Below are positions 13,266 through 44,618 of a stretch of 45,498 bases of DNA, one piece after another. Source of the stretch: a phage; the NCBI GenBank assembly GCA_016693855.1, contig GCA_016693855.1_4844.1; one strand, given 5' to 3'. Position 1 is the first letter of the stretch; each line of letters opens with the position of its first letter. A model generated the notes under the pieces. It was not told the DNA's origin and made no database searches. It was given only the letters and a program-made list of their open reading frames with translations. The position numbers were made by a program, and so were the translations under genes.

Positions 13266-13769
13266 TTAGAACGGGATGTTGTCATCGAAGTCCATAGGCT
13301 GCTCATTACCTCCTTGTGGGATTTGTTGTTTTTGTTGCTGCTGTTGTTGCGGATTTGTTCCCCATCCGCCTTGAGGTTGCTGGCCTGATTGCTGGCGTGG
13401 TTGCTGACCAGAATCTTCGCGCTTACCTCCAAGCATCTGCATAACGCCGCCAATCTGTGGAATAACAATCTCCGTGGTATATCTGTCTACGCCGTTGCTG
13501 TCAGACCATTTACGAGTGCGAAGCTGTCCTTCGATATAAACCTGAGAACCTTTGCGAAGATATTCTCCTGCAACTTCCGCAAGTTTCCCGAAGATTACTA
13601 TGCGATGCCATTCAGTCTGCTCTTTCTTTTCTCCTGTCTGCTTATCTTTCCACTGCTCAGATGTTGCAACAGAAAGGTTGGCAATTGCAGAGCCTGATGC
13701 TGAATATTTAACTTCAGGGTCGTTTCCGAGGGTGCCGACAATAATTACTTTATTTACGCCGCGTGCCAT
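13266..13769 (-). CDS. ssb: single-stranded DNA-binding protein
   Basis: 167 aa; N-terminal OB-fold sequence [20 protein letters not shown]…, Gly/Gln/Pro-rich linker and acidic C-terminal tail …MDFDDNIPF, all hallmarks of bacterial/phage SSB. Confidence 0.95.
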
Positions 13770-13772
13770 TTA

Positions 13773-14432
13773 TTAAAATCCTTCAATTGGAGTTGGTTTG
13801 TGTTCGGTTTTTTCTTCCTGCGGTTCTGGCTGTTGATGTTGAGGCTTAGCCAGTTTTGCAGGGTTAAATGATTCGCCTGATACCATGAATTTAGCCTTCA
13901 TTTCTTGATAAGCGCCAACAATAACGCGAGTTGCTGCATCATCACCACGGAACGCCTTGTATTCCTCGCCATAGATTACAGCCAACTCTTCCATGCTGGA
14001 TGCGTTGCGAATCAATGCTACTGCGTCTTTTGGTGATTTGCGCGCAGCATTGCCATCATCATCAGCCTGAGCAATACCAAACATTGCCGCGATGGAATAT
14101 CTGCGTGCATACGTCATTGCGGAGCCATACCCTTGCGCATCCTTCTTAGCTACTGGCATTGGCATCACGGATGACATGTATTCACCAGACTCATGCATTA
14201 TCGTTGTTTCAAGTTTAAGCACATCCATTGAATCGCCATCAATGGCATTCTGGATGATTATAAGACCGTTAGCCTCAAGCGCTGGGCGTATTGCATCGAG
14301 GAATGACTCAAGGTTTGCGTAATTGCTTTTCAGGTGTGGGTTTTTGGCGTTTTTCTTTGCACCACTACTCATCACCTTGCGAGCCTCAACCAGCGCCTTA
14401 ATCAGGTTAGCTTTCTGTTCCGAGAAAATCAT
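13773..14432 (-). CDS. erf: ERF-family single-strand annealing protein
   Basis: 219 aa; conserved segment …YGSAMTYARRYSIAAMFGIAQADDDG… matches the signature region of P22 Erf-type recombinases as I recall it; adjacent to ssb and a nuclease. Confidence 0.8.
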   Translation of the reverse strand: MIFSEQKANLIKALVEARKVMSSGAKKNAKNPHLKSNYANLESFLDAIRPALEANGLIIIQNAIDGDSMDVLKLETTIMHESGEYMSSVMPMPVAKKDAQGYGSAMTYARRYSIAAMFGIAQADDDGNAARKSPKDAVALIRNASSMEELAVIYGEEYKAFRGDDAATRVIVGAYQEMKAKFMVSGESFNPAKLAKPQHQQPEPQEEKTEHKPTPIEGF

Positions 14433-14448
14433 TTCATCACCTCACTAA

Positions 14449-15387
14449 TTATAAATTAAACTGTTTCTTGAACCATTCAGGCGTTTCCATTTCGATTACG
14501 GGATTACCCATTGAATAACCCGGCCATGAATTGGCTTTTTTGCATGCCTTGTAAATTTCCATTGCGCCATTCAACTGAATGCGACCGATGCGTAATTGCT
14601 CTTCAGTCAGGCGAATTAACGCAGTGATAAACGGCGCTTTCTTTTCCTGTACGAGAAGATTCACAGACCGTGGAGCGTGACCGTATGCCGCAACAAACAT
14701 ATCGTGTTGCATAGCCATTTTCATGAAGTACCCAAGCCGCGCAGCATGACGGAAAAACTCTTCAGGCTTGGCGCTTACCGCCGTCTTGTAGTCAATGATG
14801 TCGCCACCTTTTGTCAGGCAATCAAAACGAACCTTTGCTTTTTCTCCGTTAAGTTCACCGAGAATTGACACTTCAGCATAAGCGCCAGCAAGAAGGCTGC
14901 TGTAATAGCTGTTTGCGTGGATTACAGCACGCATTTGCTGAATGGCATCATAATCACCACCTTCCAGCATTTGCTTTCCCGCTGCGGCTTTTTCAGCTTC
15001 TTCACGGATAACATCGTAAATCTTCACTGGCTCGCCAGTTGCACGAATTATTTTGATCACATCAGCTTTCGACTTTCCTGAAAGTCCTTTAATCCCGCGC
15101 TCTTTCGCCCATGAGTTCATGTCACTTACAGTAACAAGCAGATCATCACCAAAATCTTCTTTTGTCGGCATCCGTGCATATTCTGCATCGAAACGCTCAG
15201 GTTCAAGCAGTGCTGTGTGGCTTCCTGTTCCGAAGATAAGTGCTTTTGACTGCTCATCTTCTTCATCTTTGTAGCGCCATGCTGCTGGGCATCTGTCAAG
15301 TATATTCCATAATCCAGAACCATTAATGTGCTCTGTGTCAGCATGATAATCCTGATTGCTTAATTCATTATTGAAATAGACTTTCAT
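14449..15387 (-). CDS. PD-(D/E)xK family nuclease (putative recombination exonuclease)
   Basis: Motif …GGDIIDYKTA… (D-x-hhDhK) typical of PD-(D/E)xK/RecB-like nucleases; located next to Erf. Start taken as ATG at 15387 preceded by GTGAGG RBS (track start 15399 is a GTG). Confidence 0.6.
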   Translation of the reverse strand: MKVYFNNELSNQDYHADTEHINGSGLWNILDRCPAAWRYKDEEDEQSKALIFGTGSHTALLEPERFDAEYARMPTKEDFGDDLLVTVSDMNSWAKERGIKGLSGKSKADVIKIIRATGEPVKIYDVIREEAEKAAAGKQMLEGGDYDAIQQMRAVIHANSYYSSLLAGAYAEVSILGELNGEKAKVRFDCLTKGGDIIDYKTAVSAKPEEFFRHAARLGYFMKMAMQHDMFVAAYGHAPRSVNLLVQEKKAPFITALIRLTEEQLRIGRIQLNGAMEIYKACKKANSWPGYSMGNPVIEMETPEWFKKQFNL

Positions 15388-15416
15388 TGTTAACCTCACT
15401 CATCATCACGTAAATG

Positions 15417-15428
15417 AATCTACATCAA
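15417..15428 (-). promoter_or_regulatory. TTGATGTAGATT motif copy (minus-strand orientation) upstream of nuclease gene
   Basis: Plus strand reads AATCTACATCAA at 15417-15428; same motif as at seven other intergenic sites. Confidence 0.4.
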
Positions 15429-15850
15429 CCCAAATCAAAAGGCAAGCCAAAATAGAAAAGTGTGGCTTTTTTTAGTTCGTCAAGACCGTAAGCGATGGCA
15501 GCATAATGACCAAGCCTGCACATCTCAGTTAACACAGCGGATTGCTCTTTGCTAACCCTGCTTTTGCTTTTATCGCGGCGCTTTGCTTCAATCATCCCGC
15601 AACTGTGATTTACTCCCGGCGTCATTATCACATTGTCGCCTATTCCAGTCTTAACCCCCATTTTCTGGCGCTTCAGCACAAACTGCACCCTGCTTGATGT
15701 GCCAGTTTCGTTGGGTACATGAAACCACAGAACATCAGGGAAGCGGTGTTGCATCCATGTACCGTAACCCATCTGATCAGTCTCCTCTTTCGGGCATTCT
15801 CCGCGATAACCGCTATCAAATACCCATATGCCGCTATCAAGCTGCTTCAC
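15425..15850 (-). CDS. VRR-NUC domain nuclease
   Basis: 141 aa; …GIGDNVIMTPGVNHSCGMIEAKRRDKSKSRVSKEQ… fits the VRR-NUC (PD-(D/E)xK) pattern of a hydrophobic strand-Asp followed by ExK and a downstream Q. Confidence 0.65.
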   Translation of the reverse strand: MKQLDSGIWVFDSGYRGECPKEETDQMGYGTWMQHRFPDVLWFHVPNETGTSSRVQFVLKRQKMGVKTGIGDNVIMTPGVNHSCGMIEAKRRDKSKSRVSKEQSAVLTEMCRLGHYAAIAYGLDELKKATLFYFGLPFDLG

Positions 15851-17771
15851 TTTGTTCTCCTGTAAAATCTTTTCTGTGGATTATGTCACGGCCTTTATCG
15901 TTGATACGATGCGTGATGCGTTTTGGCGCCTTAATCAATCCCGCATACATCATGAATTGCTTGGCGTTCTGGCATTTCAGGATTTTCCCGGCCATTGACT
16001 TATCATCAAGGTGAGGAAAGATAGCCTTCGCCTTAAACATGTTTTTCATGTGAGTTGCGCCGCCATAAGGGTAGAAAACCTCATTAGCCCATCCTTCTTT
16101 GCCATCACAACGATTAATCCAGTATCGATACAAAACCCCTTCCCCGTCCTTCGTTAACTGAACCTTGAAATCCATAACATCAGCCCACTCATTATCGGTA
16201 TACGCACGCTCATTAAGCGCCGCATTAGGGTCACGCAAAACATGATCGCAATGTCGGCAATAACGCGCAGTAGGGTCGTTTTTAGTACCACATCCATCAT
16301 CAAAAATACGTATTCCATGCTTATCGAAACCGCAACGGATGTAACTGAAAAACTCCTCGCAGCGACCATCTGGAGATACCGGGTCTTTCCCTATGCATCG
16401 ACGCGCATATGGGCTGTTCATTGTTCCACATTTTGGACACGGAACCTGTTCGCCACTGCGTTTTGAACGTTGCGCTTCAGCCTCTTCCAGAATTGGGTCT
16501 TCATACAGCTGACCAAGCTCAAACATCGTGCCTGAGAAATCCAGAACAAGATGGTCTTCTTTATGATACCCTGCATCAATTTGCTCTTTCTTCAGCAGGC
16601 GCATCCCGCGACCAAGCAACTGAACAAGAAGGGTGAGCGACATTATTTTTCTTAATATCACGCTTGTATCCCAAAGCGGGATGTTGACTCCTGTCGTAAG
16701 CGCGGCTATCTGGAATGTGTATTTTATTTTTCCAGTGTATGCATCCTTTAGTGCCTTACGTCTTGCTTTTTTCCCCATATCTTCAGTGACAATGGCGTAG
16801 CTTCCTTCTGGCAGATATTTAGCAGCTTCTAAACAATGCTTCTTGCCTGCACAGGTAATTAACACTCCATTTCTATCTTTTGTAAGCTCCATCACTTTAA
16901 GCATGATTTTCTGTGTGAGAGTGCCTTGTTCAAGTATTTCTTCCTGCATCTGCTTAAGTTGTTCAGCAGTGAAATCCTGCGTTCCGTCAACATCAGAGCC
17001 ATGAAATGATGAAAGGTCGTATTGCAAATCATCAACATCATGAAGTCCAAAGATTGTTGGAACAACAAATCCGCGATCTACCATGTACTTTGTGTCAATG
17101 TTTATTATTTCATTCTTCCAATACGCACCTTTCATTGACTCGGTGCCACGGAAAGGGCTTCCAGTGAATCCGATAGTTATCATGTCATGTCCATACTTTG
17201 CCTTACAGCGCCGATTTAACTCGGTCAGTATAACGCCATACTGTGTTGTTGGTTCACCACCGACAATGTCCTGCCACGGTACTTGGTGCCCTTCATCGCA
17301 AAGGCAAAATCTTGGGGTGAAATCACTCAACCCACCTTTCTTAACGTCACCATTTGATTCATCTTTTTTATCAAAAAGTGCGTTCACGATTGTTCCTTCA
17401 GTGCCGCATATAATAGGATATGCTGTGCTTTTCCTGCCAAGAGATGCACTATAAAGAGAGTTTTTTACACCGCACTCCCACATCATTTCAGCATTCTGCT
17501 CGGCTATTTCCCCCTGCCTTGAAATTACAAGACCATCCCACCACATATCCTGAAATCTACTGCAAAGCATTGAAATCATCACCGTCTTCCCTGATGAAAC
17601 CGACGCTGTAACATAGCTTGGTTCAGGTTTCTTGCCAAAATTACGAATAACCTCAGCGCACTTTGCGTAAACAAGCCATTGGTAATCATATGGCTCTATG
17701 GAGCCTAGTTTTATTGATTTCTTTAATTTATCTATATCAATCTCTGAAATCATCTTGTCTATTTTATGCAT
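15837..17771 (-). CDS. SF2 DNA helicase with C-terminal zinc-ribbon region
   Basis: 644 aa; Walker A-like …ASVSSGKTV…, DExH-like …LCDEGHQ…, and C-terminal Cys clusters CPKCG…C and CRHCDH. Confidence 0.8.
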   Translation of the reverse strand: MHKIDKMISEIDIDKLKKSIKLGSIEPYDYQWLVYAKCAEVIRNFGKKPEPSYVTASVSSGKTVMISMLCSRFQDMWWDGLVISRQGEIAEQNAEMMWECGVKNSLYSASLGRKSTAYPIICGTEGTIVNALFDKKDESNGDVKKGGLSDFTPRFCLCDEGHQVPWQDIVGGEPTTQYGVILTELNRRCKAKYGHDMITIGFTGSPFRGTESMKGAYWKNEIINIDTKYMVDRGFVVPTIFGLHDVDDLQYDLSSFHGSDVDGTQDFTAEQLKQMQEEILEQGTLTQKIMLKVMELTKDRNGVLITCAGKKHCLEAAKYLPEGSYAIVTEDMGKKARRKALKDAYTGKIKYTFQIAALTTGVNIPLWDTSVILRKIMSLTLLVQLLGRGMRLLKKEQIDAGYHKEDHLVLDFSGTMFELGQLYEDPILEEAEAQRSKRSGEQVPCPKCGTMNSPYARRCIGKDPVSPDGRCEEFFSYIRCGFDKHGIRIFDDGCGTKNDPTARYCRHCDHVLRDPNAALNERAYTDNEWADVMDFKVQLTKDGEGVLYRYWINRCDGKEGWANEVFYPYGGATHMKNMFKAKAIFPHLDDKSMAGKILKCQNAKQFMMYAGLIKAPKRITHRINDKGRDIIHRKDFTGEQSEAA

Positions 17772-18292
17772 TATTTTACCCTACCAAATTCACCATGATA
17801 CTTTTTTGATGCTTCTGCATAAACCTTTGCTGCTTCTTCTTTTGTATCATATCTTCCTAGCCATATTTTTTTATTATTTACATGTATAGAGCAAGTCCAT
17901 TTTTTTGTTTGCTTGCAAAAACCAACACCCTTTACACCAGAGGTGTTATGGCTTGGAATCCTCATGTTTCTTAAGTTTCCATTAAAGTTTGTTTCTCTTA
18001 GGTTTTCTATCCTGTTATTCAATCTATTTCCATCTTTATGGTCTATTATTAACTCAGGCCAATAACCATGCACTAAAGCCCATATTATTCTGTGAACCTT
18101 TATATCAACACCTAAAAAACCAACCTGAAGATATCCACTTACAGTCTTCGAACCTGCAATAGCGCCACGTTTAACCCTGTTTGTTGTTGTTCTTTTCCAT
18201 ATGAGATTTATTCCGTCATATGAAAAATACTCCCGCAACGTAGATACTGGTATTGACTTCTCTTTTAACTTCATTAATTCGAAATCATTCAC
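17771..18292 (-). CDS. HNH homing endonuclease with AP2-like DNA-binding domain
   Basis: …HRIIWALVHGYWPELIIDHKDGNRLNNRIENLRE… HNH motif followed by …SGVKGVGFCKQTKKWTCSI…LGRYDTKEEAAKVY… AP2-type domain; free-standing, immediately upstream of the helicase. Confidence 0.85.
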   Translation of the reverse strand: MNDFELMKLKEKSIPVSTLREYFSYDGINLIWKRTTTNRVKRGAIAGSKTVSGYLQVGFLGVDIKVHRIIWALVHGYWPELIIDHKDGNRLNNRIENLRETNFNGNLRNMRIPSHNTSGVKGVGFCKQTKKWTCSIHVNNKKIWLGRYDTKEEAAKVYAEASKKYHGEFGRVK

Positions 18293-18354
18293 TTTACGTT
18301 ACCCTCATTCAGTGTTACGCTTAAAGCATACAAACAGTAACAGATGGAGTCAAC

Positions 18355-19305
18355 ATGTTTTATTGGGAAGAGATACAACAAAAGATGATTGGGAATTGGG
18401 AGGCAGCACTATTGTCAATAGTCAACATAGATAGGAAAATTTTTTCTGGAAAACATCAACCATGCCCTCATTGCATGGGTGTTGACCGGTTTCGTTGGGA
18501 TAATCACTTCGAAACAAAAGGAGACGGCGGCGCAATCTGCAATCAGTGCGGTTCCGGCAGCGGCATGAACTGGCTGATGAAACTTTCAGGCATGAACTTC
18601 CCAGAAGCGCTGGAGGCGCTGGGGGGATTCCTGAATATGCACCCGCGTGAAAAGCTGGAGGCAATCAGGAAGGAGTTACCGAAGATAAATCATAATGACG
18701 ACTTCATCACCGAGCAGGAAGTCGCCGCAATCATGGCTAAAACGACGCGTGTCGCGATGAATGAGTGGACGTTGATAAATGGTATTGGTTGCGACATTAA
18801 CGTCGTCAGAGGTAAATCTGGAAGGCTTATTGCGGTTGAGATGATGCGTGCTGACACAATGAAACCGTGCAACGTGGCATTCATTGGCATGGATGGGGAT
18901 GCATTCAGAACATTCTACAAAGCGGGATACAACAAAGACTCAGCAATAAGCGGAAAACTCACGCGCGGCGCGATAAGCCCAATCGGAGAAGATAACGGGA
19001 AGTTCATTTACCTTGTATCTGATTATGCCGACGCGTGGAAATGCCATTACTTCACTGGCGCGCATGTCTGGTGCTGCTGGTCGCCGGAAAACATGTGGGA
19101 AGTAGTGCGTTCTGTCAGCGATGAGACTAAAGCACGGTTACGCTGCATAGTTAATTATAAATTTGACGAACTTTGCGCTGCGGAAAATGCAGGGCTTCCG
19201 GTGATGCTTCCTGATGATGCGGACACGATAAGAATGGCAAAGAGAATCAGGAGAAAGATTTATGACGCTGGCGAGTTGATAGAAAAAATGTCAGTAAGCA
19301 GATAA
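18355..19305 (+). CDS. DNA primase (zinc-binding domain + Toprim-like)
   Basis: N-terminal …CPHCMGVDRFRWDNHFETKGDGGAICNQCG… resembles the zinc-binding domain of P4-alpha/T7-type primases (recalled, not searched); ~316 aa; encoded opposite to the surrounding replication genes. Confidence 0.65.
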   Translation: MFYWEEIQQKMIGNWEAALLSIVNIDRKIFSGKHQPCPHCMGVDRFRWDNHFETKGDGGAICNQCGSGSGMNWLMKLSGMNFPEALEALGGFLNMHPREKLEAIRKELPKINHNDDFITEQEVAAIMAKTTRVAMNEWTLINGIGCDINVVRGKSGRLIAVEMMRADTMKPCNVAFIGMDGDAFRTFYKAGYNKDSAISGKLTRGAISPIGEDNGKFIYLVSDYADAWKCHYFTGAHVWCCWSPENMWEVVRSVSDETKARLRCIVNYKFDELCAAENAGLPVMLPDDADTIRMAKRIRRKIYDAGELIEKMSVSR

Positions 19306-19336
19306 AAGAAACCCTCCGACTGGAGGGTTTTTGTTA
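19306..19336. terminator. bidirectional intrinsic terminator
   Basis: aaagaAACCCTCCgactGGAGGGTTtttgtt between convergent primase (+) and 19337-19801 (-). Confidence 0.85.
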
Positions 19337-19801
19337 TTATGGGACGAGTCCGAGCCTTTTTCTTTCTTCGTAAAGAGCATACTCTGGATTGCCGGTTTTC
19401 TTATAAAGAATCTCCTTCAGCCTCAAAATCTCTTTCGTCGTTGCTGCCGCACCTATAACCATCGTCTCTCCGAACAAGTCAGAATAACTCAATGACTCAA
19501 GCTTCACCATGTCGTTGAAGTAGTCATCTTTTCTCGTCGCATGAAGCGACATCAGATATGGTTTATTTCTCTTATTCTTCACCCAATACACACGGTTAAC
19601 GCCATCAAGATAACCGCAACTCATTGAGCGAGCCACAAACTCTCGTGATAGGCCAAGTGCAAACTCGCCAATATCGACGCCAATTTGTTCAGCCATTCTT
19701 TTGCACTGTGTATTGCCAATTACAAATTTCTCAAGCTGAACCCTTGTGAATGTTGCATTTCCTTCACAGAATTTAAATATTGATGTTTTCATATTTATCA
19801 C
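19337..19801 (-). CDS. hypothetical protein (coupled to upstream P-loop protein gene)
   Basis: 154 aa; start overlaps the stop of the 523-aa gene (ATGA), suggesting translational coupling; no recognisable motif. Confidence 0.5.
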   Translation of the reverse strand: MINMKTSIFKFCEGNATFTRVQLEKFVIGNTQCKRMAEQIGVDIGEFALGLSREFVARSMSCGYLDGVNRVYWVKNKRNKPYLMSLHATRKDDYFNDMVKLESLSYSDLFGETMVIGAAATTKEILRLKEILYKKTGNPEYALYEERKRLGLVP

Positions 19802-21369
19802 CGAATAAGTTCAGGATTGACATACACATTACTGTCAACAACGCATACCATATTCATGGCCTCAAGCTTTGGAAGTAACTGCTCTTTTATTTTCTTCGAA
19901 ATTCCGCCTTGCGCCCTGAATGGCTTAACTTTCCTTGCTTTTTCAAGTACTCTTGACATGCTTACGTAACCCTTAGATTGTCTTGCCAGCTCTATCGTTA
20001 TTTCTGATAGTTTTTTCAGCTCGACTTCCTCACCAGCAGACCCGGATGATGTTGTTGCTGCAACATATGATTCAATTAACTCGCCAAAAATAGCGAGCGC
20101 CTCTTCCGCTGTCTCAGCAGAAATGACCTTTGATTTCTTTTCTCGACCGTCAGGTGAAAACCAATTGCGTATTACGTGAAGTACTGATGCAATCCTTACA
20201 ACCTGCTTATCCATCTTCCCGATCATACCCCTTAGCATTGAATGCCCATAAAGACCGCCATCAGCCATGTGTGGCTCTGCCTGTTGTCTTGCTGAATAAA
20301 TTGCCATTATCGCCTCATGCTCAAGAGACAGAACAACCTTTTCTTCAGTCATAATGTTGTGAATGAGTCTGTAGTATTGAGACATCAACTCTTTATCAAT
20401 TGGTGTATATGCTGGCGTTCCATCGTCATTTATGAACACGCGCTGACCAAGCATTGATTTTTCACGAAGCAGAAGGAATCGCTCACTAACACCATTAGAC
20501 CTTTCACCAACCTGCATGATTGAAAGCACGGTTTCATCCTGAGCTATAACATTTATGCACCCGTTTGCAACAAATGAAAGGTTATTTGAACCGTTAGCTC
20601 GCGCTGAAGAAACGTATTCCATATCCCACGCCTTAAGAACTGTCTCGCAGCTTGCTGTGGAATTGGCATTTGAGTAAGTAAGACCAAGCAATGTATTAAC
20701 AGCGGTAGCCTCAGCAGAAATAACGGCAAATGACCCCTGTAGAGCGTTAAGCCTGCTCAATCCTTCAGGTGTTGAGTCTGTCACAGGGAAAACAATATCA
20801 CCGAGTTTTTCAATCTCGCTTTCCAGTTTTTCCTTATCTTCGTACATGATAGCCAGTGCGGTTTTGTTTTGTTCTGATTTTATCTCCCTCTCAATCTCGC
20901 GCAGCTTGGCCAATTTTCTTTTTCTCTCTTTTCTTCTCACCTCATTAATTCTCTCATTCTCACAAACAAGAGGTGCTGTAGAGTATTGGTTTACGGAACT
21001 CTTCCCTGTCGATGGTGGCTGGCTAATGACAACATACAGTGATGTTGGCTGTTCACTTCCGTGATAGTTAACAAAGAATCGACCAAGCATGGCTGCTGAA
21101 ACGCTTCCTAAAAAATTCAGATATGCAGAAGAAGCTGGAAACTGTATTGATTTGGCAATGTTTCTTGATAGCTTACCTACAACATCAATATCATTACCAA
21201 TGCATACGTTAGTATATCCAGCATCGTTATCATCAAAGTCCTTTGGTGAGTGCCAGTAGTTTTGTGACGCTCCATATCCATTTGCTTCTATCGCAACACT
21301 CAACACAGACCGCTTGCTTTTTGCTGCCATCTCAACAATATCTTCTGGCATTAGCTTTTTCTCAAACAC
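19798..21369 (-). CDS. P-loop NTPase, DUF3987/SF3-helicase-like (putative replication protein)
   Basis: 523 aa; Walker A-like …LYVVISQPPSTGKSSV…; size and P-loop context resemble DUF3987/primase-associated helicase-like proteins of mobile elements; first large gene downstream of the iteron region. Family assignment from memory, unverified. Confidence 0.45.
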   Translation of the reverse strand: MFEKKLMPEDIVEMAAKSKRSVLSVAIEANGYGASQNYWHSPKDFDDNDAGYTNVCIGNDIDVVGKLSRNIAKSIQFPASSAYLNFLGSVSAAMLGRFFVNYHGSEQPTSLYVVISQPPSTGKSSVNQYSTAPLVCENERINEVRRKERKRKLAKLREIEREIKSEQNKTALAIMYEDKEKLESEIEKLGDIVFPVTDSTPEGLSRLNALQGSFAVISAEATAVNTLLGLTYSNANSTASCETVLKAWDMEYVSSARANGSNNLSFVANGCINVIAQDETVLSIMQVGERSNGVSERFLLLREKSMLGQRVFINDDGTPAYTPIDKELMSQYYRLIHNIMTEEKVVLSLEHEAIMAIYSARQQAEPHMADGGLYGHSMLRGMIGKMDKQVVRIASVLHVIRNWFSPDGREKKSKVISAETAEEALAIFGELIESYVAATTSSGSAGEEVELKKLSEITIELARQSKGYVSMSRVLEKARKVKPFRAQGGISKKIKEQLLPKLEAMNMVCVVDSNVYVNPELIR

Positions 21370-24284: not shown

Positions 24285-24593
24285 CGATATTAGCGACGCA
24301 ATGCAAAACATGTGGGAGCGCTATTGGGACAGCATGAAGACATGTCACTACATGATGGTGCAGATAGGCAATTACATTGAGGTTATTCCTGATAATGGTG
24401 TGCATGATATTAAATACATGTGCTCAACTAGGGCTTTCTCTAATGCAGACAACTAAACAGAAAGTTTGGGGAGTTGCTAAGGAGGAAAACTTAGACCAGT
24501 TCATTGCAGCAGTTGCAAAAACATTCCCCGAAGCAATTGAGATTGTCCACATTCAGTCGCCACGCAACGATGTGTGGTGTTGGAGTAATAAAA

Positions 24594-25082
24594 ATGACGA
24601 AAGAAAGAGATTGGAATGAGGTCTTTGAATATATAGATGGGCGCTTAATTTGGAAGATCAAACCTTGCAATAACGTAAAAGAATACTCACCAGCTGGGTC
24701 AACGCGAAACGATGGCTACCTGCATGTTGGTTTTATGAAAAAACTACATATGGTTCATAGAATTATATGGGAAATGCATAACGGAAAAATACCAGATGGG
24801 ATGGAGATTGACCATGTAAACCATAACAAAATGGACAACAGAATTGAGAATTTGCGGCTTGTTCGGCACGGAAGCAACCAAAGGAATAAATCTAAACAGG
24901 GGAATAACACTAGTGGTGTGACTGGTGTAACATGGAGCAGAAGGGATAAAAAGTGGATTGCGCAGATAATGGTTGAAAGAAAAAACATCCATCTTGGATA
25001 CTTCAGTGACTTCAACTCCGCAGTGGCGGCAAGGAAAAATGCGGAAAAAGAGCATCGCTTTCACAAGAACCATGGTATATAA
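24594..25082 (+). CDS. HNH homing endonuclease with AP2-like domain
   Basis: …HRIIWEMHNGKIPDGMEIDHVNHNKMDNRIENLRLV… HNH motif; …SGVTGVTWSRRDKKWIAQI…LGYFSDFNSAVAARKNAE… AP2-type domain; close paralog of the ORF at 28588-29064. Confidence 0.85.
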   Translation: MTKERDWNEVFEYIDGRLIWKIKPCNNVKEYSPAGSTRNDGYLHVGFMKKLHMVHRIIWEMHNGKIPDGMEIDHVNHNKMDNRIENLRLVRHGSNQRNKSKQGNNTSGVTGVTWSRRDKKWIAQIMVERKNIHLGYFSDFNSAVAARKNAEKEHRFHKNHGI

Positions 25083-25197: not shown

Positions 25198-25644
25198 ATG
25201 GCTAATCCAAACCCTGTCATGAAATTTTCCTCTGAGTACCAGCCTGCTGGCAGAGGATTAAGCTACAGAAACAGGCTTATTGAAGCATTAAAGCGATGCG
25301 GGCTTGGCGAGGAGGAATTCCTTGACGCATTCATCAGGACGTCAATCAGGATGACTGAGGAAAACCCGACTCAGGGTGTGCAAATGCTGAAGGAAATATT
25401 CCTGCGCATCAGCCCTGTGCAAAAAAGTATGGCACCTCCGGTTAATTTTAAATACCGCAAAGATGCCACGCCAGTAGAGCAGATAGAGGACGTCATTCAA
25501 TCTGTCTCCAGTGGCGAGCTTCCAATTGATGTTGCGTCTCAGGTTGTGTCTATGATTAAGGTTGGTCTTGACGTGAAAGAATTAACCGAACTCGCCGCGC
25601 GCCTTGAGCGACTAGAGAAATTACTGGAGCAGCAGAATGCGTGA
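25198..25644 (+). CDS. terminase small subunit (putative, by position)
   Basis: 148 aa ORF directly upstream of the terminase large subunit gene; no confident motif. Confidence 0.35.
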   Translation: MANPNPVMKFSSEYQPAGRGLSYRNRLIEALKRCGLGEEEFLDAFIRTSIRMTEENPTQGVQMLKEIFLRISPVQKSMAPPVNFKYRKDATPVEQIEDVIQSVSSGELPIDVASQVVSMIKVGLDVKELTELAARLERLEKLLEQQNA

Positions 25645-25781: not shown

Positions 25782-27206
25782 ATGGCTCGTAAACGCCTCT
25801 CCGCGCTGGCAATTGAAAAGCTGGAGGCGCAGATTGATGATGCAATGACAGATGTTGCAGAGTCCGCTATCTTTGGCATCTGCGACATGCAGAAGAACGT
25901 CATCAAGCGGCTAAGGATGACCGCTACTGGCGTTGATGACGTGACTAATGCAACCACCCATGCCGACCACCTTATTCCGGCAAAACTGGAGCGACTTCTT
26001 TATCCGAAGCGTTTCAAGTTTGTCTACGGTGGTCGTGGGTCAGGCAAGACGAGAACGATTATCACTATCCTTACAGAGCGAGCAAGGTTTCGCCCTGACC
26101 GCTTTGCCTGTTTTCGTGAGATTCAGCAATCCATTGAAGACTCAAGCTACCAGGAATTGTGCGACGAAATAGCGCGCAAGGGCGAATCGGCAGAGTTTCG
26201 CGTTATCAACAACGAGATAACGCACAAGAAGACCAAAGCTAAATTCCGCTTCAAAGGGCTGTATCGCAACCAGACTACAGTTAAGGGTTTCGCTGGAATT
26301 ACCGTTGGCTGGGTAGAGGAGGCAGAGAACGTCAGCCAGACAAGCTGGGATATTCTTGTGCCTACCATCCGTGCTGCCAATTCCGAGCTGTGGTGCTCAT
26401 TCAACCCCAACAAGGAAACAGACCCGACGTGGAAAAACTGGATTGCTCCATATCACTCGCAGATGGTCGATGGAATATTCGAAAATGATGAAATTCTGAT
26501 TGTCGAATGTAACTATTCAGACAACCCGTGGTTCTGGGATACGCCGTTGCCATCCGCTATGGAGCAAATGAAGCGAACTGATTACGACCGTTATCGCTGG
26601 ATTTGGATGGGAGCCTTTAATAAGCGTAGCGATGAGCAGGTCTTCGGCGGCAAATGGCGCATTGATAACTTCGAGGTCAAACCTGAATGGCATGGCCCAT
26701 ACTTCGGGATGGACTTCGGGTTTTCCACCGATCCAACCGCAATGGTTGAGGTTTATATCGAAGAATTACCAGGTGGGCGGCGCAATATTTATATTAATCG
26801 CGAGTACGGCAAGGTTGGGCTTGAGATTACCGATACGCCAGCCGCGATGGAGCAATCATTCCCAATGGCTAAGCGCGCGCGATGGTATGCGGACTGCGCG
26901 CGACCAGAAACCATCAGCCACATCAAGCGCTCGGGGTTTGACATTCATCCATGCACAAAATGGCCCGGAAGCGTAGAGGACGGCGTAACGTGGCTTCGTG
27001 GTTGCGACAGCATCATTATTCACGAACGATGCAAGGAGATGCAGAATGAGGCGGCAATGTACAGCTACAAAGTCGATAAGCTGACAGGGAATGTGCTGAC
27101 TGATATTGTCGATGCGTACAACCACTACTGGGATGCGGTTCGCTACGCACTAAATGACCACATCGTTCAGCGCGGTATCGGAATGCTAATCCGGCGCAGG
27201 CGATAA
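25782..27206 (+). CDS. terminase large subunit
   Basis: 474 aa; Walker A …KFVYGGRGSGKTRT…, followed by ATPase and C-terminal nuclease-sized region; typical size and motif order for phage TerL. Confidence 0.9.
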   Translation: MARKRLSALAIEKLEAQIDDAMTDVAESAIFGICDMQKNVIKRLRMTATGVDDVTNATTHADHLIPAKLERLLYPKRFKFVYGGRGSGKTRTIITILTERARFRPDRFACFREIQQSIEDSSYQELCDEIARKGESAEFRVINNEITHKKTKAKFRFKGLYRNQTTVKGFAGITVGWVEEAENVSQTSWDILVPTIRAANSELWCSFNPNKETDPTWKNWIAPYHSQMVDGIFENDEILIVECNYSDNPWFWDTPLPSAMEQMKRTDYDRYRWIWMGAFNKRSDEQVFGGKWRIDNFEVKPEWHGPYFGMDFGFSTDPTAMVEVYIEELPGGRRNIYINREYGKVGLEITDTPAAMEQSFPMAKRARWYADCARPETISHIKRSGFDIHPCTKWPGSVEDGVTWLRGCDSIIIHERCKEMQNEAAMYSYKVDKLTGNVLTDIVDAYNHYWDAVRYALNDHIVQRGIGMLIRRRR

Positions 27207-38386: not shown

Positions 38387-40266
<1,880 letters not shown>

Positions 40267-40268
40267 TA

Positions 40269-41342
40269 ATGGAAAAGATTATCTTTACCAAAGATTTGGT
40301 AGCCAACTCCGCAATAGTGGCTGACCAGTGGAAACATCTCACCATCGACCGCAAGGTGTTCTGCAATGCAGAAGCTGAGCTGGCGAAAACTTACGGTGTT
40401 AACGCCACCGCACTGGTAACAAAAGATTACTGGCGCGACGTGGATAACGTCACTACCCGCGTTTTCCGTAACGAGGCTGGTCAGGACATGATGGCTGACC
40501 TGATGGGTATCGCGGCAAACATCAATATCGGTAAGACCGTGGCAATCAGCCGCATTGCTTCCGATGCTGGTAAGGTCGTCCGCACTCTGTCTGGTCAGGA
40601 GCCGGAAGATTTGGATAAAACTCGCTACGATTACACTGGCGATGTGATTCCAATCTTCAAAACTGGCTACAGCCGCGAATGGCGCGAACTGCTGGGTATG
40701 CAGTCAGAAGGTTTTGACCCACTGCTGGACGATCAGGCTAACGTCACCTTTAACCTGCGTTCCGACATGGCGCAGTATCTGCTGACTGGCGACCAGACTC
40801 TGAACGTGAACGGCGTTTACACTGGTTACGGCATCACTAACCACCCGAACACTGTTCAGGTTAACCTGAGCGTTTCCGGTGGCGGCCCGAATATCGACCT
40901 GCAAACCGCAACGCCAGACGAAATCGTGAAATTCTTCAATCAGGATTTCCAGGCTATTCTGGATGCGCAGAACGTATTTGAGCAGGTGACTCTGTGGGTT
41001 TCTCCGGCAGTGCGTCGCAGCTTCATGCGCCCGTATTCTGATGCGGCTGGCTTCAAAGGCGGCACAATTGAGCAGTACATCACGCAGTTCGGCAATGGTC
41101 GCATCGGCAAGATTGGCACAAACTTCCTGCTGACTGGCAACCATTTCGTTGGCTACGTTCGCAACGACATGTACATCCGTCCGCGTGTTGCTCAGCCTGT
41201 TTCCACCTATGCGGCAGCCCGTGACAATCCGCACGATAACTTTAACTTTATGGTGTGGTCAGCTTTCGGTTTGCAAATTCGTAAGGATTTCACCGGCAAG
41301 TCAAAAGTGTTCAACGGCTACGGTACGCAAACTCCGCAGTAA
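40269..41342 (+). CDS. major capsid protein (putative)
   Basis: 357 aa; position after scaffold/decoration genes, followed by a strong terminator; size typical of HK97-fold capsid proteins. Confidence 0.6.
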   Translation: MEKIIFTKDLVANSAIVADQWKHLTIDRKVFCNAEAELAKTYGVNATALVTKDYWRDVDNVTTRVFRNEAGQDMMADLMGIAANINIGKTVAISRIASDAGKVVRTLSGQEPEDLDKTRYDYTGDVIPIFKTGYSREWRELLGMQSEGFDPLLDDQANVTFNLRSDMAQYLLTGDQTLNVNGVYTGYGITNHPNTVQVNLSVSGGGPNIDLQTATPDEIVKFFNQDFQAILDAQNVFEQVTLWVSPAVRRSFMRPYSDAAGFKGGTIEQYITQFGNGRIGKIGTNFLLTGNHFVGYVRNDMYIRPRVAQPVSTYAAARDNPHDNFNFMVWSAFGLQIRKDFTGKSKVFNGYGTQTPQ

Positions 41343-41385: not shown

Positions 41386-41583
41386 ATGGCTAAATACGAA
41401 GTCATCGCACGCGGAATCTTTGTTAAAGAGAAAGGCAAGATTCGTGAATTGCAGCTTGGCGAGGTTATCACGGAGCCTGCTGAGCATCTGCTGCCAAAAC
41501 TGCGCGTTATGCCAGAACTGGAAAAGTCTTTCGAAGTCGCAACCCCACAAGAAAAGACGACAAAGAGAAAGAAAGCAGAGTAA
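41386..41583 (+). CDS. hypothetical protein
   Basis: 65 aa Lys/Glu-rich ORF with GAGGTG RBS, flanked by terminators. Confidence 0.4.
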   Translation: MAKYEVIARGIFVKEKGKIRELQLGEVITEPAEHLLPKLRVMPELEKSFEVATPQEKTTKRKKAE

Positions 41584-41585
41584 AC

Positions 41586-41612
41586 TGAACCCGCATAATG
41601 CGGGTTTTTTAT
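41586..41612 (+). terminator. intrinsic terminator
   Basis: AACCCGCataatGCGGGTTtttt. Confidence 0.85.
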
Positions 41613-41623
41613 TGGGGGTTTCC

Positions 41624-42442
41624 ATGGCTGTCAGATACGAAATAAACACAACTCCGGCTGATGGAGAGGTTTTGCTTAGCGAAACCATGTCTGCTGACTG
41701 GACTGCATTGCAGGTACAGATTGTGCCGCTAAATTCTTCCGGTGGCTATGAGCCATTAACAAGCGGGTCCGTTTCCGTAATGGTATCGCCGTTTGCGTCT
41801 GGTGATTTCTGGATTGGCGTTAACAATAATAATTATTATGGCGTGGCGCTGCGACTGAAGGTGATCAAGTCCCAGATACCTGCTGGCATTGCATCCCTGA
41901 AAGTCCTGGTATGGCGAGCTGCCACATCAGTACCATCAAGTCAGGTTGTCGCGCAGTCATATGCAGAGTTTGCCAACAAGCAAGGGAAGTTATTCACCGC
42001 ATCACGTCGCGTGACTGACGTCGCTGGTGGCTCAAACCTTGATAGCATATTTATCACCGGAACAAAGCAGGTGATATTCAACCAGCGCATTATTGGCTAC
42101 ACAGGGAAAGGTGTCGTTGCATCAATCTATCGCGGCGCGGTTGTCACTGGCGGTACGGCTGCGGATATTAATAATCCCAACGACATAACACCGCAGGCAG
42201 CTACGGCGCAGCTTCTGACTGGCTCTACGATCACAAGTATTGGACAGCTTACGGTCGCAGCAACATATAGTGAGGGTAACGCATCGAATCAAGGGCAGGG
42301 CAACTCGCAGGCTATATTAGGCGAGCAGATCATCATGGCACCAAACACGACGTATTTGCTTCGCATAACATCACTGGATACTGCGGTGCAGAATATCAAT
42401 GCATATGTCTCGTGGTTTGAGGATGATACTTATCTGGCGTGA
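41624..42442 (+). CDS. hypothetical structural protein
   Basis: 272 aa from ATG 41624; Ser/Thr/Gly/Val-rich beta-type composition; follows capsid genes. Confidence 0.4.
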   Translation: MAVRYEINTTPADGEVLLSETMSADWTALQVQIVPLNSSGGYEPLTSGSVSVMVSPFASGDFWIGVNNNNYYGVALRLKVIKSQIPAGIASLKVLVWRAATSVPSSQVVAQSYAEFANKQGKLFTASRRVTDVAGGSNLDSIFITGTKQVIFNQRIIGYTGKGVVASIYRGAVVTGGTAADINNPNDITPQAATAQLLTGSTITSIGQLTVAATYSEGNASNQGQGNSQAILGEQIIMAPNTTYLLRITSLDTAVQNINAYVSWFEDDTYLA

Positions 42443-42444
42443 TA

Positions 42445-42474
42445 AAAGAAAAGCCCCGTGAAGGGGCTTTTTAT
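42445..42474. terminator. bidirectional intrinsic terminator
   Basis: aaaagaaAAGCCCCgtgaaGGGGCTTtttatt between convergent 41624-42442 (+) and 42477-43013 (-). Confidence 0.85.
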
Positions 42475-42476
42475 TG

Positions 42477-43013
42477 CTACAGGCGCATCGGCATAACAAC
42501 AATCTTCGCAGTCTCGCCAGATGGCGCACTAAGGCAGCAAACTGCGGCATTTGTATTTCCATTCAGTTCAAATTTGACACCACAGAATTTTGGATTAAAT
42601 AGCTTGGCGCACTTCTCAACATCAGCAAGGTATTTAGCGTTAAATCCGATTTGCTCAGTTGGCGAAGTCTGTTTTGGTATAACGCGATCAATATCAGGGA
42701 ATCGACCGTCAATAATGTTACAGATACCAGCACCTACCATTAACTCTGTATCATCATGGTACGTGACCATTTTTGTTTTGGTATCCAGCACCGCATAATC
42801 ATAGCGCTTAATTGGCGACTTACTGACTGATACAATGACGCTGTCTGTCAGTTTGTTGTCGTGCTTGCCACCAACAAACATCCTATGCCCATCAGTTGAC
42901 GCAACGCGACCATCTGGCATGAAGCAAATACCGTTCAGATAGTAACGCACATCATTCTTTGCCTGAAACATCAATGCGCCTTCGAGTAATAACTTGCTGA
43001 TTTTTAATTTCAT
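42477..43013 (-). CDS. truncated DNA polymerase III beta sliding-clamp (DnaN) homolog
   Basis: 178 aa from ATG 43013 (AAGGTG RBS). Ordered matches to E. coli DnaN as I recall it: FQAKNDVRYYLNG (DnaN ~150), ASTDGHRMF (~172), DGRFPDIDRVIPK (~240-253), IGFNAKYLADV (~325) and the C-terminal …IVVMPMRL (DnaN ends …YVVMPMRL). Domain I and the first half of domain III are absent. Confidence 0.7.
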   Translation of the reverse strand: MKLKISKLLLEGALMFQAKNDVRYYLNGICFMPDGRVASTDGHRMFVGGKHDNKLTDSVIVSVSKSPIKRYDYAVLDTKTKMVTYHDDTELMVGAGICNIIDGRFPDIDRVIPKQTSPTEQIGFNAKYLADVEKCAKLFNPKFCGVKFELNGNTNAAVCCLSAPSGETAKIVVMPMRL

Positions 43014-43186
43014 CACTTCACCTTAATCATATGTTGTTTTGCAACCTTGAGGCACTCTTCAAAAATGCCACCCTTCTTTGCGCTCTGATTGCGCTTGTAA
43101 TACTGAATTGCCGCATCAATTGCCATCTGGTCGATGTCCGTCAGCTTGGCGCGAAGTTGTTTTTCGATGAATTGTTCTGGTGTCAT
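43013..43186 (-). CDS. hypothetical small protein (57 aa)
   Basis: ATG 43186 with AAGGA RBS; stop overlaps the DnaN-like start (TGATG); below ORF-track size cutoff. Confidence 0.35.
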   Translation of the reverse strand: MTPEQFIEKQLRAKLTDIDQMAIDAAIQYYKRNQSAKKGGIFEECLKVAKQHMIKVK

Positions 43187-43398: not shown

Positions 43399-44208
43399 TC
43401 ACATCTTTTCCAGAATTGCCATAACCTCGTGAATATCAGCAACAGGAATCTGGATAAACTCCTCATCCTCTGCCACCACATGACCAGCAGGTAGAATCAC
43501 ATGGTCTGCTGGCTTCAATAACTCGATCAGGCGGTCTACTGGCTTAATCTTTTTCGACTTCAGCACTTTGGCTGTGACCTTGTCCTTGCCTTGTGCTTTG
43601 GCCTCTTCGACTGCCTCGTCGATAACTTTAACCGCATCATCGCCATGTTCACGCGTTACTGCTACGGCATTTGCATAGCTGATTTGTCCTGCACTGATGC
43701 GCGCTTTTACTTCTGCTGGCACATCACCCAGCGACAGGTGCATTTGCACGTCAGATACTGAGCGGCCTACCTTCTTGGCGATTTCTTCATTTGTCCAGCC
43801 AAATCCTTTCAATCGCGTGTAAGCCTTTGCACGCTCAAACGGGTCAAGCTGCTTGCCCTGACTGGATGACACCATGAAGGCGATTTTGTCCGCCTCGTCG
43901 CCAGTGAAATCCTTGCACTCAATGCGAACGATTGGTGCGCCGCGTTCAATGGCTCGTAGTGCACCAAGATAGCGATGCTGACCATCAAGAATGCGGATTC
44001 CTTTGTCGTCAGGGATAACTGTTAATGCTGGCAATGGCTGACCTGATTCCCAGCACTGAGCGAAATATTCAACGTGTTGCTCATCTGCTTCACGGATGTT
44101 ATATCCCGGCTCCAGATAGATTCGCTCCACTGGCACGAGATAGGTTTTGTTAACAGCAATACCGTTGCGCGTTTCTTTGTCTGAATAGATTTTGCTTAGT
44201 GTTTTCAT
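43399..44208 (-). CDS. ParB-like protein (ParB N-terminal nuclease-like domain + HTH)
   Basis: 269 aa; …IRILDGQHRYLGALRA… matches the ParB/Srx-fold arginine-containing box; …FGWTNEEIAKKVGRSVSDVQMHLSL… is HTH-like; no ParA partner in the window. Confidence 0.7.
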   Translation of the reverse strand: MKTLSKIYSDKETRNGIAVNKTYLVPVERIYLEPGYNIREADEQHVEYFAQCWESGQPLPALTVIPDDKGIRILDGQHRYLGALRAIERGAPIVRIECKDFTGDEADKIAFMVSSSQGKQLDPFERAKAYTRLKGFGWTNEEIAKKVGRSVSDVQMHLSLGDVPAEVKARISAGQISYANAVAVTREHGDDAVKVIDEAVEEAKAQGKDKVTAKVLKSKKIKPVDRLIELLKPADHVILPAGHVVAEDEEFIQIPVADIHEVMAILEKM

Positions 44209-44531
44209 TGTTTCTTTCCTAATGCTTTCTTGATAGATTCTTCAGCTAACAGCAATTCTTCTGGGTATTGCTCATTCCAGTTTTGTTTGTATGCCTTGCC
44301 AAGCATTTTTTGCAGAGCTTCAAGCAACTCAGGTGCTGCGGCTATTAACTTTGCATTTGCACGCGTTTCATCAGCCTCTCTGGCATGAACATTTTCATAA
44401 ACAGGTGTTAATACATTTGCCACCTTATATCGATGACCAATAATTGCGCCTCTGATTCTGATGTATGGCTTATCTACTTCTTCTGGTAAAACCTGCCACG
44501 GACCTTTTGTACCTTTGAATTCATCTTTCAT
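44205..44531 (-). CDS. hypothetical protein, paralog of 32607-32891 (FKGTxGPW family)
   Basis: Start taken as ATG 44531 (GAGGTGAG RBS): MKDEFKGTKGPW…LIAAAPELLEALQKML…; first gene of the leftward operon that ends with the DnaN-like gene. Confidence 0.5.
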   Translation of the reverse strand: MKDEFKGTKGPWQVLPEEVDKPYIRIRGAIIGHRYKVANVLTPVYENVHAREADETRANAKLIAAAPELLEALQKMLGKAYKQNWNEQYPEELLLAEESIKKALGKKQ

Positions 44532-44557
44532 ATCACTCACCTCTAACATTTATTGTT

Positions 44558-44618
44558 GTTTCTACGTCACTAACTATAAACGCACCATCAATCTACGTCA
44601 ACAGGAATGTGCTAAAAT
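44558..44618. promoter_or_regulatory. divergent promoter region with TTTCTACGTCA and AATCTACGTCAA motif copies and extended -10 TGCTAAAAT
   Basis: Motif copies at 44558-44570 and 44590-44601; TGCTAAAAT at 44610-44618 ahead of a 39-aa basic ORF (44649-44768). Confidence 0.5.

Follow-up and report, generated by a model that had tools for sequence, protein, structure and literature searches.

The 45,498-nucleotide phage contig GCA_016693855.1_4844.1 (NCBI GenBank assembly GCA_016693855.1; the whole stretch is called the window below) encodes on its minus strand a product of 178 amino acids (aa) (42480-43013, stop codon 42477-42479) that is a beta-clamp-fold protein, homologous to domain II, the inter-domain linker and half of domain III of DnaN. 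This protein, named here the mini-clamp, was classified with high confidence as a non-canonical clamp module that has kept the pocket for clamp-binding motifs (CBMs), and the pocket probably binds such a motif, judging from its residues. The gene is autonomous, moves from one genome context to another and has no fixed phage partner. The function favoured here, at about even chances, is that of a loader-independent tether that keeps the host's polymerase, or else other CBM proteins, attached to phage DNA.

Homology was assessed against the E. coli DnaN sequence of strain MG1655. The initial annotation of the window had reported five DnaN segments in the protein, and all five were located in the claimed order: RYYLNG (residues 23-28), TDGHR (40-44), DGRFPDIDRVIPK (102-114), IGFNAKY..DV (122-132) and VVMPMRL (172-178), which pair respectively with R152-G157, T172-R176, D238-K250, I317 onward and V360-L366 of E. 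coli DnaN. When the sequences of the Protein Data Bank (PDB) were searched with phmmer, only beta clamps were recovered, with E-values of 1e-14 (Enterobacter) and 4e-13 (E. coli), and the match was made of two collinear stretches (mini-clamp 7-154 on DnaN 136-289 and 119-178 on DnaN 313-366). The overlap between the stretches was settled by hhalign: the profile of 133 family members matched E. coli DnaN with a probability of 99.6%, placing residues 8-116 on DnaN 137-252 and residues 118-178 on DnaN 313-366. Identity to E. coli DnaN was approximately 36% over the aligned columns.

In the hhalign alignment, DnaN residues 1-~130 and ~253-312 were left unmatched, in agreement with the annotated loss of domain I and of the first half of domain III. 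The second of these gaps includes the dimer-interface strand that carries I272/L273. A loss that had not been annotated was found by DSSP in the AlphaFold model: domain II also lacks its second helix, the one that lines the channel, no helix being present at residues 64-72, between strands 59-63 and 73-77. As both domains have lost their distal parts, the mini-clamp is centred on the domain II/III junction, which is the site of the pocket.

The retained parts are arranged as follows (all coordinates on the minus strand). The DnaN domain II-like domain (residues 1-101, 42711-43013) corresponds to DnaN 137-237 from residue 8 onward in hhalign and contains two pocket walls, RYYLNG (42930-42947) and TDGHR (42882-42896). 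The inter-domain linker with DGRFPDIDRVIPK (residues 102-116, 42666-42710) is the equivalent of DnaN D238-K250 and provides the pocket residues P106, R110 and V111. The C-terminal half of domain III (residues 117-178, 42480-42665), recognised by phmmer, hhalign and Pfam beta_3, forms one beta-alpha-beta-beta-beta motif and includes IGFNAKY (42630-42650), a lysine-rich helix (residues 126-139) and VVMPMRL (42480-42500). With Pfam, DNA_pol3_beta_2 was matched on residues 18-107 and beta_3 through its positions 68-121 of 121 only, and DNA_pol3_beta was unmatched; the two scores (21.4 and 16.7 bits) are under the curated threshold of 27. The TIGR00663 score (43.4 bits) is far under the cut-off of 137.65. 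The mini-clamp thus shares with DnaN the clamp fold and, at the sequence level, the CBM pocket, and lacks the three domains of a ~366-aa chain, the curated scores and the dimer interface.

The fold was predicted with AlphaFold2 using the 133-sequence alignment (pLDDT 97.4, pTM 0.91), and the top 50 PDB matches of this model in Foldseek were all beta clamps, so that structure and profile comparisons both recovered the DnaN fold. Approximately 90% of the chain superposes on DnaN, and therefore both retained pieces keep their native mutual geometry. Neither phmmer nor Foldseek returned a PDB entry closer to the mini-clamp than full-length clamps.

For the pocket, the published residues of subsite I (R152, L155, T172, G174, H175, R176, L177, P242, R246, V247, V360 and M362) and subsite II (H175, N320, Y323, V344, M362, P363, M364 and R365) were used (PMC11139829). 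The annotated retention of the partner-binding cleft was borne out: 16 of these 18 residues are identical to E. coli DnaN, the only substitutions being L177 to M and V344 to T, and V344 is one of two pocket positions that are non-conserved in DnaN itself (PMC11139829). Conservation was then measured across 133 diverse family members (28-50% identity to the query), taken from whole-sequence HMMER matches. The most frequent residue had a mean frequency of 0.73 in the pocket columns and of 0.37 elsewhere (Mann-Whitney p 6e-7), and of the twelve best-conserved positions that follow the start methionine, nine belong to the pocket (G42, P106, R23, M174, H43, L26, T40, Y128 and P175). Because the alignment was built without motif selection, this result is not circular. 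This alignment shows strong purifying selection on the pocket throughout a large phage family.

The family was delimited by several searches. With tblastn, full-length homologs were obtained from 255 phage records, at 85% down to 27% identity; the hosts of these phages include Salmonella, Escherichia, Klebsiella, Vibrio, Shewanella, Edwardsiella and Sodalis, and only one plasmid carried a homolog. An index of 5.8 billion proteins gave 503 matches, the best 120 of which were all close relatives. An HMMER scan of 1.84 billion cluster representatives gave 2782 matches; among the best 150 of these, 132 were 165-222 aa long and only three were full-length DnaN. Full-length short proteins of 170-220 aa are carried by more than 130 distinct 50%-identity clusters, the 133 family sequences fall into about 70 clusters at ~38% identity, and the truncated architecture is constant from 96% to under 30% identity. 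The idea that the gene is a broken or disrupted clamp gene, which the initial annotation had kept as an alternative, was consequently rejected, since the short form is the norm in the 255 phage genomes and dominates the best 150 representatives.

The family corresponds to PHROG 3007 (full-length match at E 8.6e-61, with residues 1-178 covering positions 1-186 of a profile of 190), which is labelled as a RusA-like Holliday junction resolvase. This identity was rejected: no match to RusA (PF05866) was obtained at E-values up to 1, and the fold is that of a clamp. Genuine RusA genes are separate open reading frames (ORFs) near the mini-clamp in 4 of the 23 loci of the neighbourhood census described below, which may be how the label arose. 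The label is present in RefSeq records (e.g. NC_031924.1 gp47, locus coordinates 18704-19243) and is spreading through RefSeq phage annotations, where it is wrong for the mini-clamp family. Many other records name the gene "DNA polymerase III beta subunit" or processivity factor. PADLOC gave no defence-system match for the mini-clamp or its operon neighbours.

To judge from the sequence, a canonical DnaN ring is impossible for the mini-clamp, which has neither domain I nor the interface segment with I272/L273. The annotated view that the protein is not ring-forming therefore holds for the canonical ring, the interfaces of which are deleted in the hhalign alignment, and does not extend to a monomer, as a tandem model suggests a dimer. 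Since the half-domain should expose the surface that normally packs on its twin motif, a tandem construct (178 aa, a 30-residue GS linker and again 178 aa) was folded with AlphaFold using a 20-sequence paired alignment. The model had a pTM of 0.74 and only the linker was disordered. Strands 121-125 and 145-149 of the half-domain were longer than in the monomer, a new complete clamp domain was detected, and there were new matches to the split PCNA 3l0x_B and to a designed protein. The model suggests a head-to-head dimer, in which the two half-domains would pair on a two-fold axis into one complete clamp domain, with two pockets; residues 117-178 are thus the predicted dimerisation element.

The mini-clamp is basic, with an isoelectric point (pI) of 8.85 and a net charge of +4.7. 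The median pI of the family is 8.2 and 63% of its members are above 7.5; E. coli DnaN has a pI of 5.25, and its region equivalent to the mini-clamp a pI of 6.1. The conserved basic positions that are not inherited from the pocket are K19, K134, K137 and K142. K19 corresponds to H148 in the 148-152 loop of DnaN. The single helix of the half-domain carries K134 and K137 and is closely followed by K142; in DnaN that helix lines the DNA channel. A high pI was used by Kazlauskas & Venclovas as a criterion separating loader-independent non-ring clamps (UL42, UL44) from ring clamps (PMC3201878). The basic channel-side helix and the loop equivalent to 148-152 probably contact DNA directly.

The window phage is a siphovirus with ~88% DNA identity to IME207 (genus Shuimuvirus), swi2, Sf11 and C1, IME207 being its closest named relative. 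Its replication/recombination module (13266-21369) encodes a single-stranded DNA-binding protein (SSB), an Erf-like annealase, a RecE-like exonuclease, a phrog_824 protein, a 644-aa helicase, a primase and a 523-aa helicase. Neither a DNA polymerase nor a clamp-loader gene was found in the window or in the complete IME207 genome. The podovirus Sortsne has the SSB, Erf, exonuclease, helicase and primase in common with the window despite a P22-like structural module; its mini-clamp lies between two methyltransferases, and there is no polymerase in the 29 kb viewed. In the temperate Vibrio myovirus R19R, the mini-clamp is near Dam and SSB genes and a polymerase is likewise absent.

For the neighbourhood census, 23 loci dereplicated at 60% identity were collected from IMG/VR and GenBank. 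No universal neighbour of the mini-clamp was found among them. Within +/-10 kb, the most recurrent genes encoded an unknown 508-aa protein (7/23 loci), SSB (6/23), DUF7249 (5/23), a DUF2800 nuclease (5/23), RusA (4/23), a primase-helicase (4/23) and a DNA polymerase of the type found in Sodalis phage SO-1 (4/23). Within +/-3 genes, no family or PHROG recurred in more than 2 of the 23 neighbourhoods (blastp clustering and PHROG census). A strict terminal CBM was present in none of the 706 neighbouring ORFs of these loci (1.4 expected by chance) and in no ORF of the window, and a phage-encoded CBM partner was accordingly rejected. That the pocket is conserved while no phage partner is suggests a host ligand of universal occurrence.

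Methyltransferase genes (Dam-type or C5) were observed near the mini-clamp in Bas78 (5031-5828), Sortsne (19309-19959 and 20560-21300) and R19R (40229-40894; all locus coordinates). This association is anecdotal: the window has no adjacent methyltransferase, and no common methyltransferase PHROG appeared in the census.

The mini-clamp is the last cistron of a leftward transcription unit. Its start is an ATG, with a GTG one codon upstream; the ATG is preceded by a Shine-Dalgarno-like AAGGTG and overlaps the stop of an upstream 57-aa ORF (43013-43186, minus; phrog_4439, a function-unlabelled family) in the sequence TGATG, through which the two genes are translationally coupled. Of the 64 loci in the window's clade, 61 have this ORF directly upstream of the mini-clamp, and none of the 22 other clades does; a weak QLRAKL string was noted in it. 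Further upstream in the same unit are a ParB-like protein (43399-44208, minus; phrog_1033) and a phrog_1273 protein (44205-44549, minus). The only strict CBM-like string of the window is QMHLSL at residue 155 of the ParB-like protein; it is internal and may be due to chance. A promoter-like site (44573-44601) is a consensus match only, and such matches are no more numerous than expected from shuffled sequence. Just past the mini-clamp stop, a strong, intrinsic terminator-like hairpin (42449-42471, minus; 9-bp stem with 5 GC pairs, followed by a T tract) sits between convergent operons, at the end of the leftward one.

On the plus strand, an ORF downstream of the major capsid gene (41420-42442) matches phrog_5335 over its C-terminal 170 residues only; its N-terminal part and true start are uncertain, and it is overlapped by a 65-aa phrog_2138 ORF (41386-41583). 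Two HNH endonuclease ORFs, both phrog_99, were also seen. One (17771-18292, minus) is squeezed in between the genes of the 644-aa helicase and the primase; the other (24504-25082, plus) precedes the large terminase (25782-27206) by ~700 bp, a 148-aa ORF (25198-25644) occupying the space in between, and in IME207 an HNH gene directly precedes the terminase.

If the mini-clamp is a tether, it would bind CBM-bearing host proteins without being loaded as a ring, candidate clients being the alpha or epsilon subunit of DNA polymerase III (Pol III), the clamp-loader subunit delta, Pol II/IV/V, Hda and MutS/MutL. Two copies probably pair head-to-head through their half-domains, which would give an arc of three domains with two pockets. 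Such a function would be comparable to that of the herpesvirus non-ring factors UL42/UL44 and, in a phage that lacks a DNA polymerase while encoding helicases, a primase and SSB, it would help to capture the host replicase. A more detailed version, speculative and unlikely to be right in full, is a loader-independent head-to-head dimeric "C-clamp" that would sit directly on phage DNA by its basic channel face and, with its two pockets, tether to it the Pol III core of the host or different CBM enzymes.

Several observations weigh against the tether. Sodalis phage SO-1 (Dhillonvirus) carries a mini-clamp and encodes its own PolA-type, intron-containing DNA polymerase; its mini-clamp gene (locus coordinates 5082-5600) is on the opposite strand inside the head-gene block and was annotated by the depositors as a "possible moron". 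Together with the polymerase of the same type in 4 of the 23 census loci, this means that capture of host Pol III cannot be the only role of the family. The basic surface need not bind DNA, as it could just match the acidic residues that flank CBMs. Finally, the pocket is the best-conserved part of bona fide DnaN, so that some of its conservation could be inherited constraint; that it has been kept over such divergence in a truncated protein argues, on the aligned sequences, against mere inheritance.

The main rival, rated below even chances but not far behind the tether, is a soluble decoy or sponge that titrates host CBM proteins off the host clamp and does not act on DNA. Its candidate targets are translesion polymerases, MutS/MutL, Hda and delta. 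The outcome could be a shut-down of host replication, a block of RIDA (regulatory inactivation of DnaA), or the removal of translesion polymerases or of mismatch repair, which would slow or attack phage DNA while it replicates rapidly and recombines. A sponge would account well for a pocket that is conserved while ring formation is lost, and for a stand-alone, moron-like gene of variable context with no phage partner. The gene is present both in lytic and in temperate phages, some with a polymerase of their own and some without one, which fits such a general host-directed function, and the position of the mini-clamp among Erf/RecE genes and beside DNA methyltransferases in several relatives is compatible with interference with mismatch repair. 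However, the window phage and its relatives need the host polymerase, and for such phages an indiscriminate titration of Pol III alpha or epsilon would be harmful. A soluble decoy would have no need of a basic pI throughout the family or of conserved lysines on the DNA-facing helix, and stoichiometric titration demands high expression. Taken together, the basic pI, the channel-helix lysines and the missing phage DNA polymerase tilt the balance toward a tether bound to DNA and away from a soluble decoy.

It is quite improbable that the mini-clamp is instead the partner of a phage protein, such as the ParB-like one, through a degenerate or internal motif, or a regulator that couples replication to late transcription. 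The internal QMHLSL of the ParB-like protein, encoded in the same operon, and the translational coupling to the 57-aa ORF would suit such a role, as would the precedent of clamps that act as transcription co-activators in T4 (gp45) and Mu (host beta with MuC; PMC2988020, PMC12867686). But QMHLSL is a single weak match, probably in a folded region, both neighbours lack conservation outside the window's clade, and not one of the 706 neighbouring ORFs has a terminal CBM.

A very improbable reading is a ring-forming processivity clamp of new stoichiometry, for example a tetramer of two head-to-head dimers that makes a six-domain ring, is loaded by the clamp loader of the host and serves host or phage polymerases. 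In its favour, three beta-alpha-beta-beta-beta-like units per chain in four chains give the twelve units of a clamp ring; the half-domains are predicted by AlphaFold to complement each other, and many records carry the processivity-factor annotation, with a phrog_947 match at E 2.7e-13. Against these points, the distal half of domain II is without its channel-lining helix and the canonical inter-domain interfaces are missing, a ring of D2 symmetry would have no distinct faces for loader or polymerase, the basic pI is typical of non-ring factors (PMC3201878), and the window and IME207 have no clamp-loader gene.

A decaying, functionless remnant of a captured host dnaN, for which the horizontal acquisition suggested for some viral clamp homologs by Kazlauskas & Venclovas (PMC3201878) and the scores below the curated Pfam and TIGRFAM thresholds could be quoted, is effectively refuted by family-wide conservation, namely the same truncation across hundreds of phages and about 70 sequence clusters, near-invariant pocket residues and a very confident predicted fold, and by the intact coupled start and own terminator of the gene.

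Among non-ring factors, UL42 is a monomer and UL44 a head-to-head C-shaped dimer; both work without a closed ring or a loader and have a pocket for a polymerase peptide. The mini-clamp resembles them in being basic, and its tandem model suggests a two-fold dimer as in UL44. It has no specific sequence relationship to either: UL42 and UL44 consist of two complete domains and serve their own viral polymerase, whereas the mini-clamp is DnaN-derived, has ~1.5 domains and occurs in a window phage with no viral polymerase, its DNA binding and dimer being predictions. Compared with E. coli DnaN (PDB 1MMI/2POL), to which it is homologous and with which it shares the CBM pocket residues, the mini-clamp is half-sized and basic (pI 8.85 versus 5.25) and does without the head-to-tail dimeric ring. 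The Twort protein Gp168 (PDB 7EVP), Mu MuC and the partners of T4 gp45 bind the clamp, often via a CBM; the mini-clamp, in contrast, mimics the clamp pocket and, as its residues suggest, would bind the clients of the clamp.

Short phage homologs of polIIIβ were reported in 2011 by Kazlauskas & Venclovas and described only as spanning domains two and three (PMC3201878), and in 2016 it was asked what stand-alone PolIIIβ homologs do in viruses that lack a polymerase (PMC4889955). These are almost certainly the mini-clamp family: like it, they are short and phage-encoded, and some are in genomes without a DNA polymerase. The remark in the initial annotation that no phage protein of this kind had been described thus needs to be narrowed, in view of the 2011 report of homologs and of the routine annotation of the gene as a polymerase III beta subunit. 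It stands for function and structure: no functional or structural study of a short phage clamp was found in the literature, where only the 2011 and 2016 comparative papers mention homologs. Beyond these papers, the analysis adds that domain III is only half present, that the pocket is the selected feature and that the family is basic, and it predicts a head-to-head dimer. What appears to be new is the architecture of 1.5 domains, the focus of selection on the pocket, the reversed charge and the absence of a phage partner, together with the dimer prediction.

The pocket of the beta clamp is the hub that organises the clamp loader, Hda, mismatch repair and all polymerases of bacteria, and is also an antibiotic target; the mini-clamp could yield a small soluble pocket module, monomeric or dimeric, for the screening of clamp-binding peptides and inhibitors. 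It also gives a testable handle on the 2016 question of why polymerase-less viruses carry PolIIIβ homologs. If true, the C-clamp would be the bacterial-virus counterpart of UL44 and would explain how polymerase-less phages with their own helicase and primase capture the host replicase; it would likewise settle what the stand-alone viral PolIIIβ homologs are for. The existence of a diverse phage family in which DnaN has been pared nearly to its pocket implies that phages exploit the clamp-client network from the side of the clamp, a strategy so far without experimental description, the known phage factors being ones that bind the host clamp.

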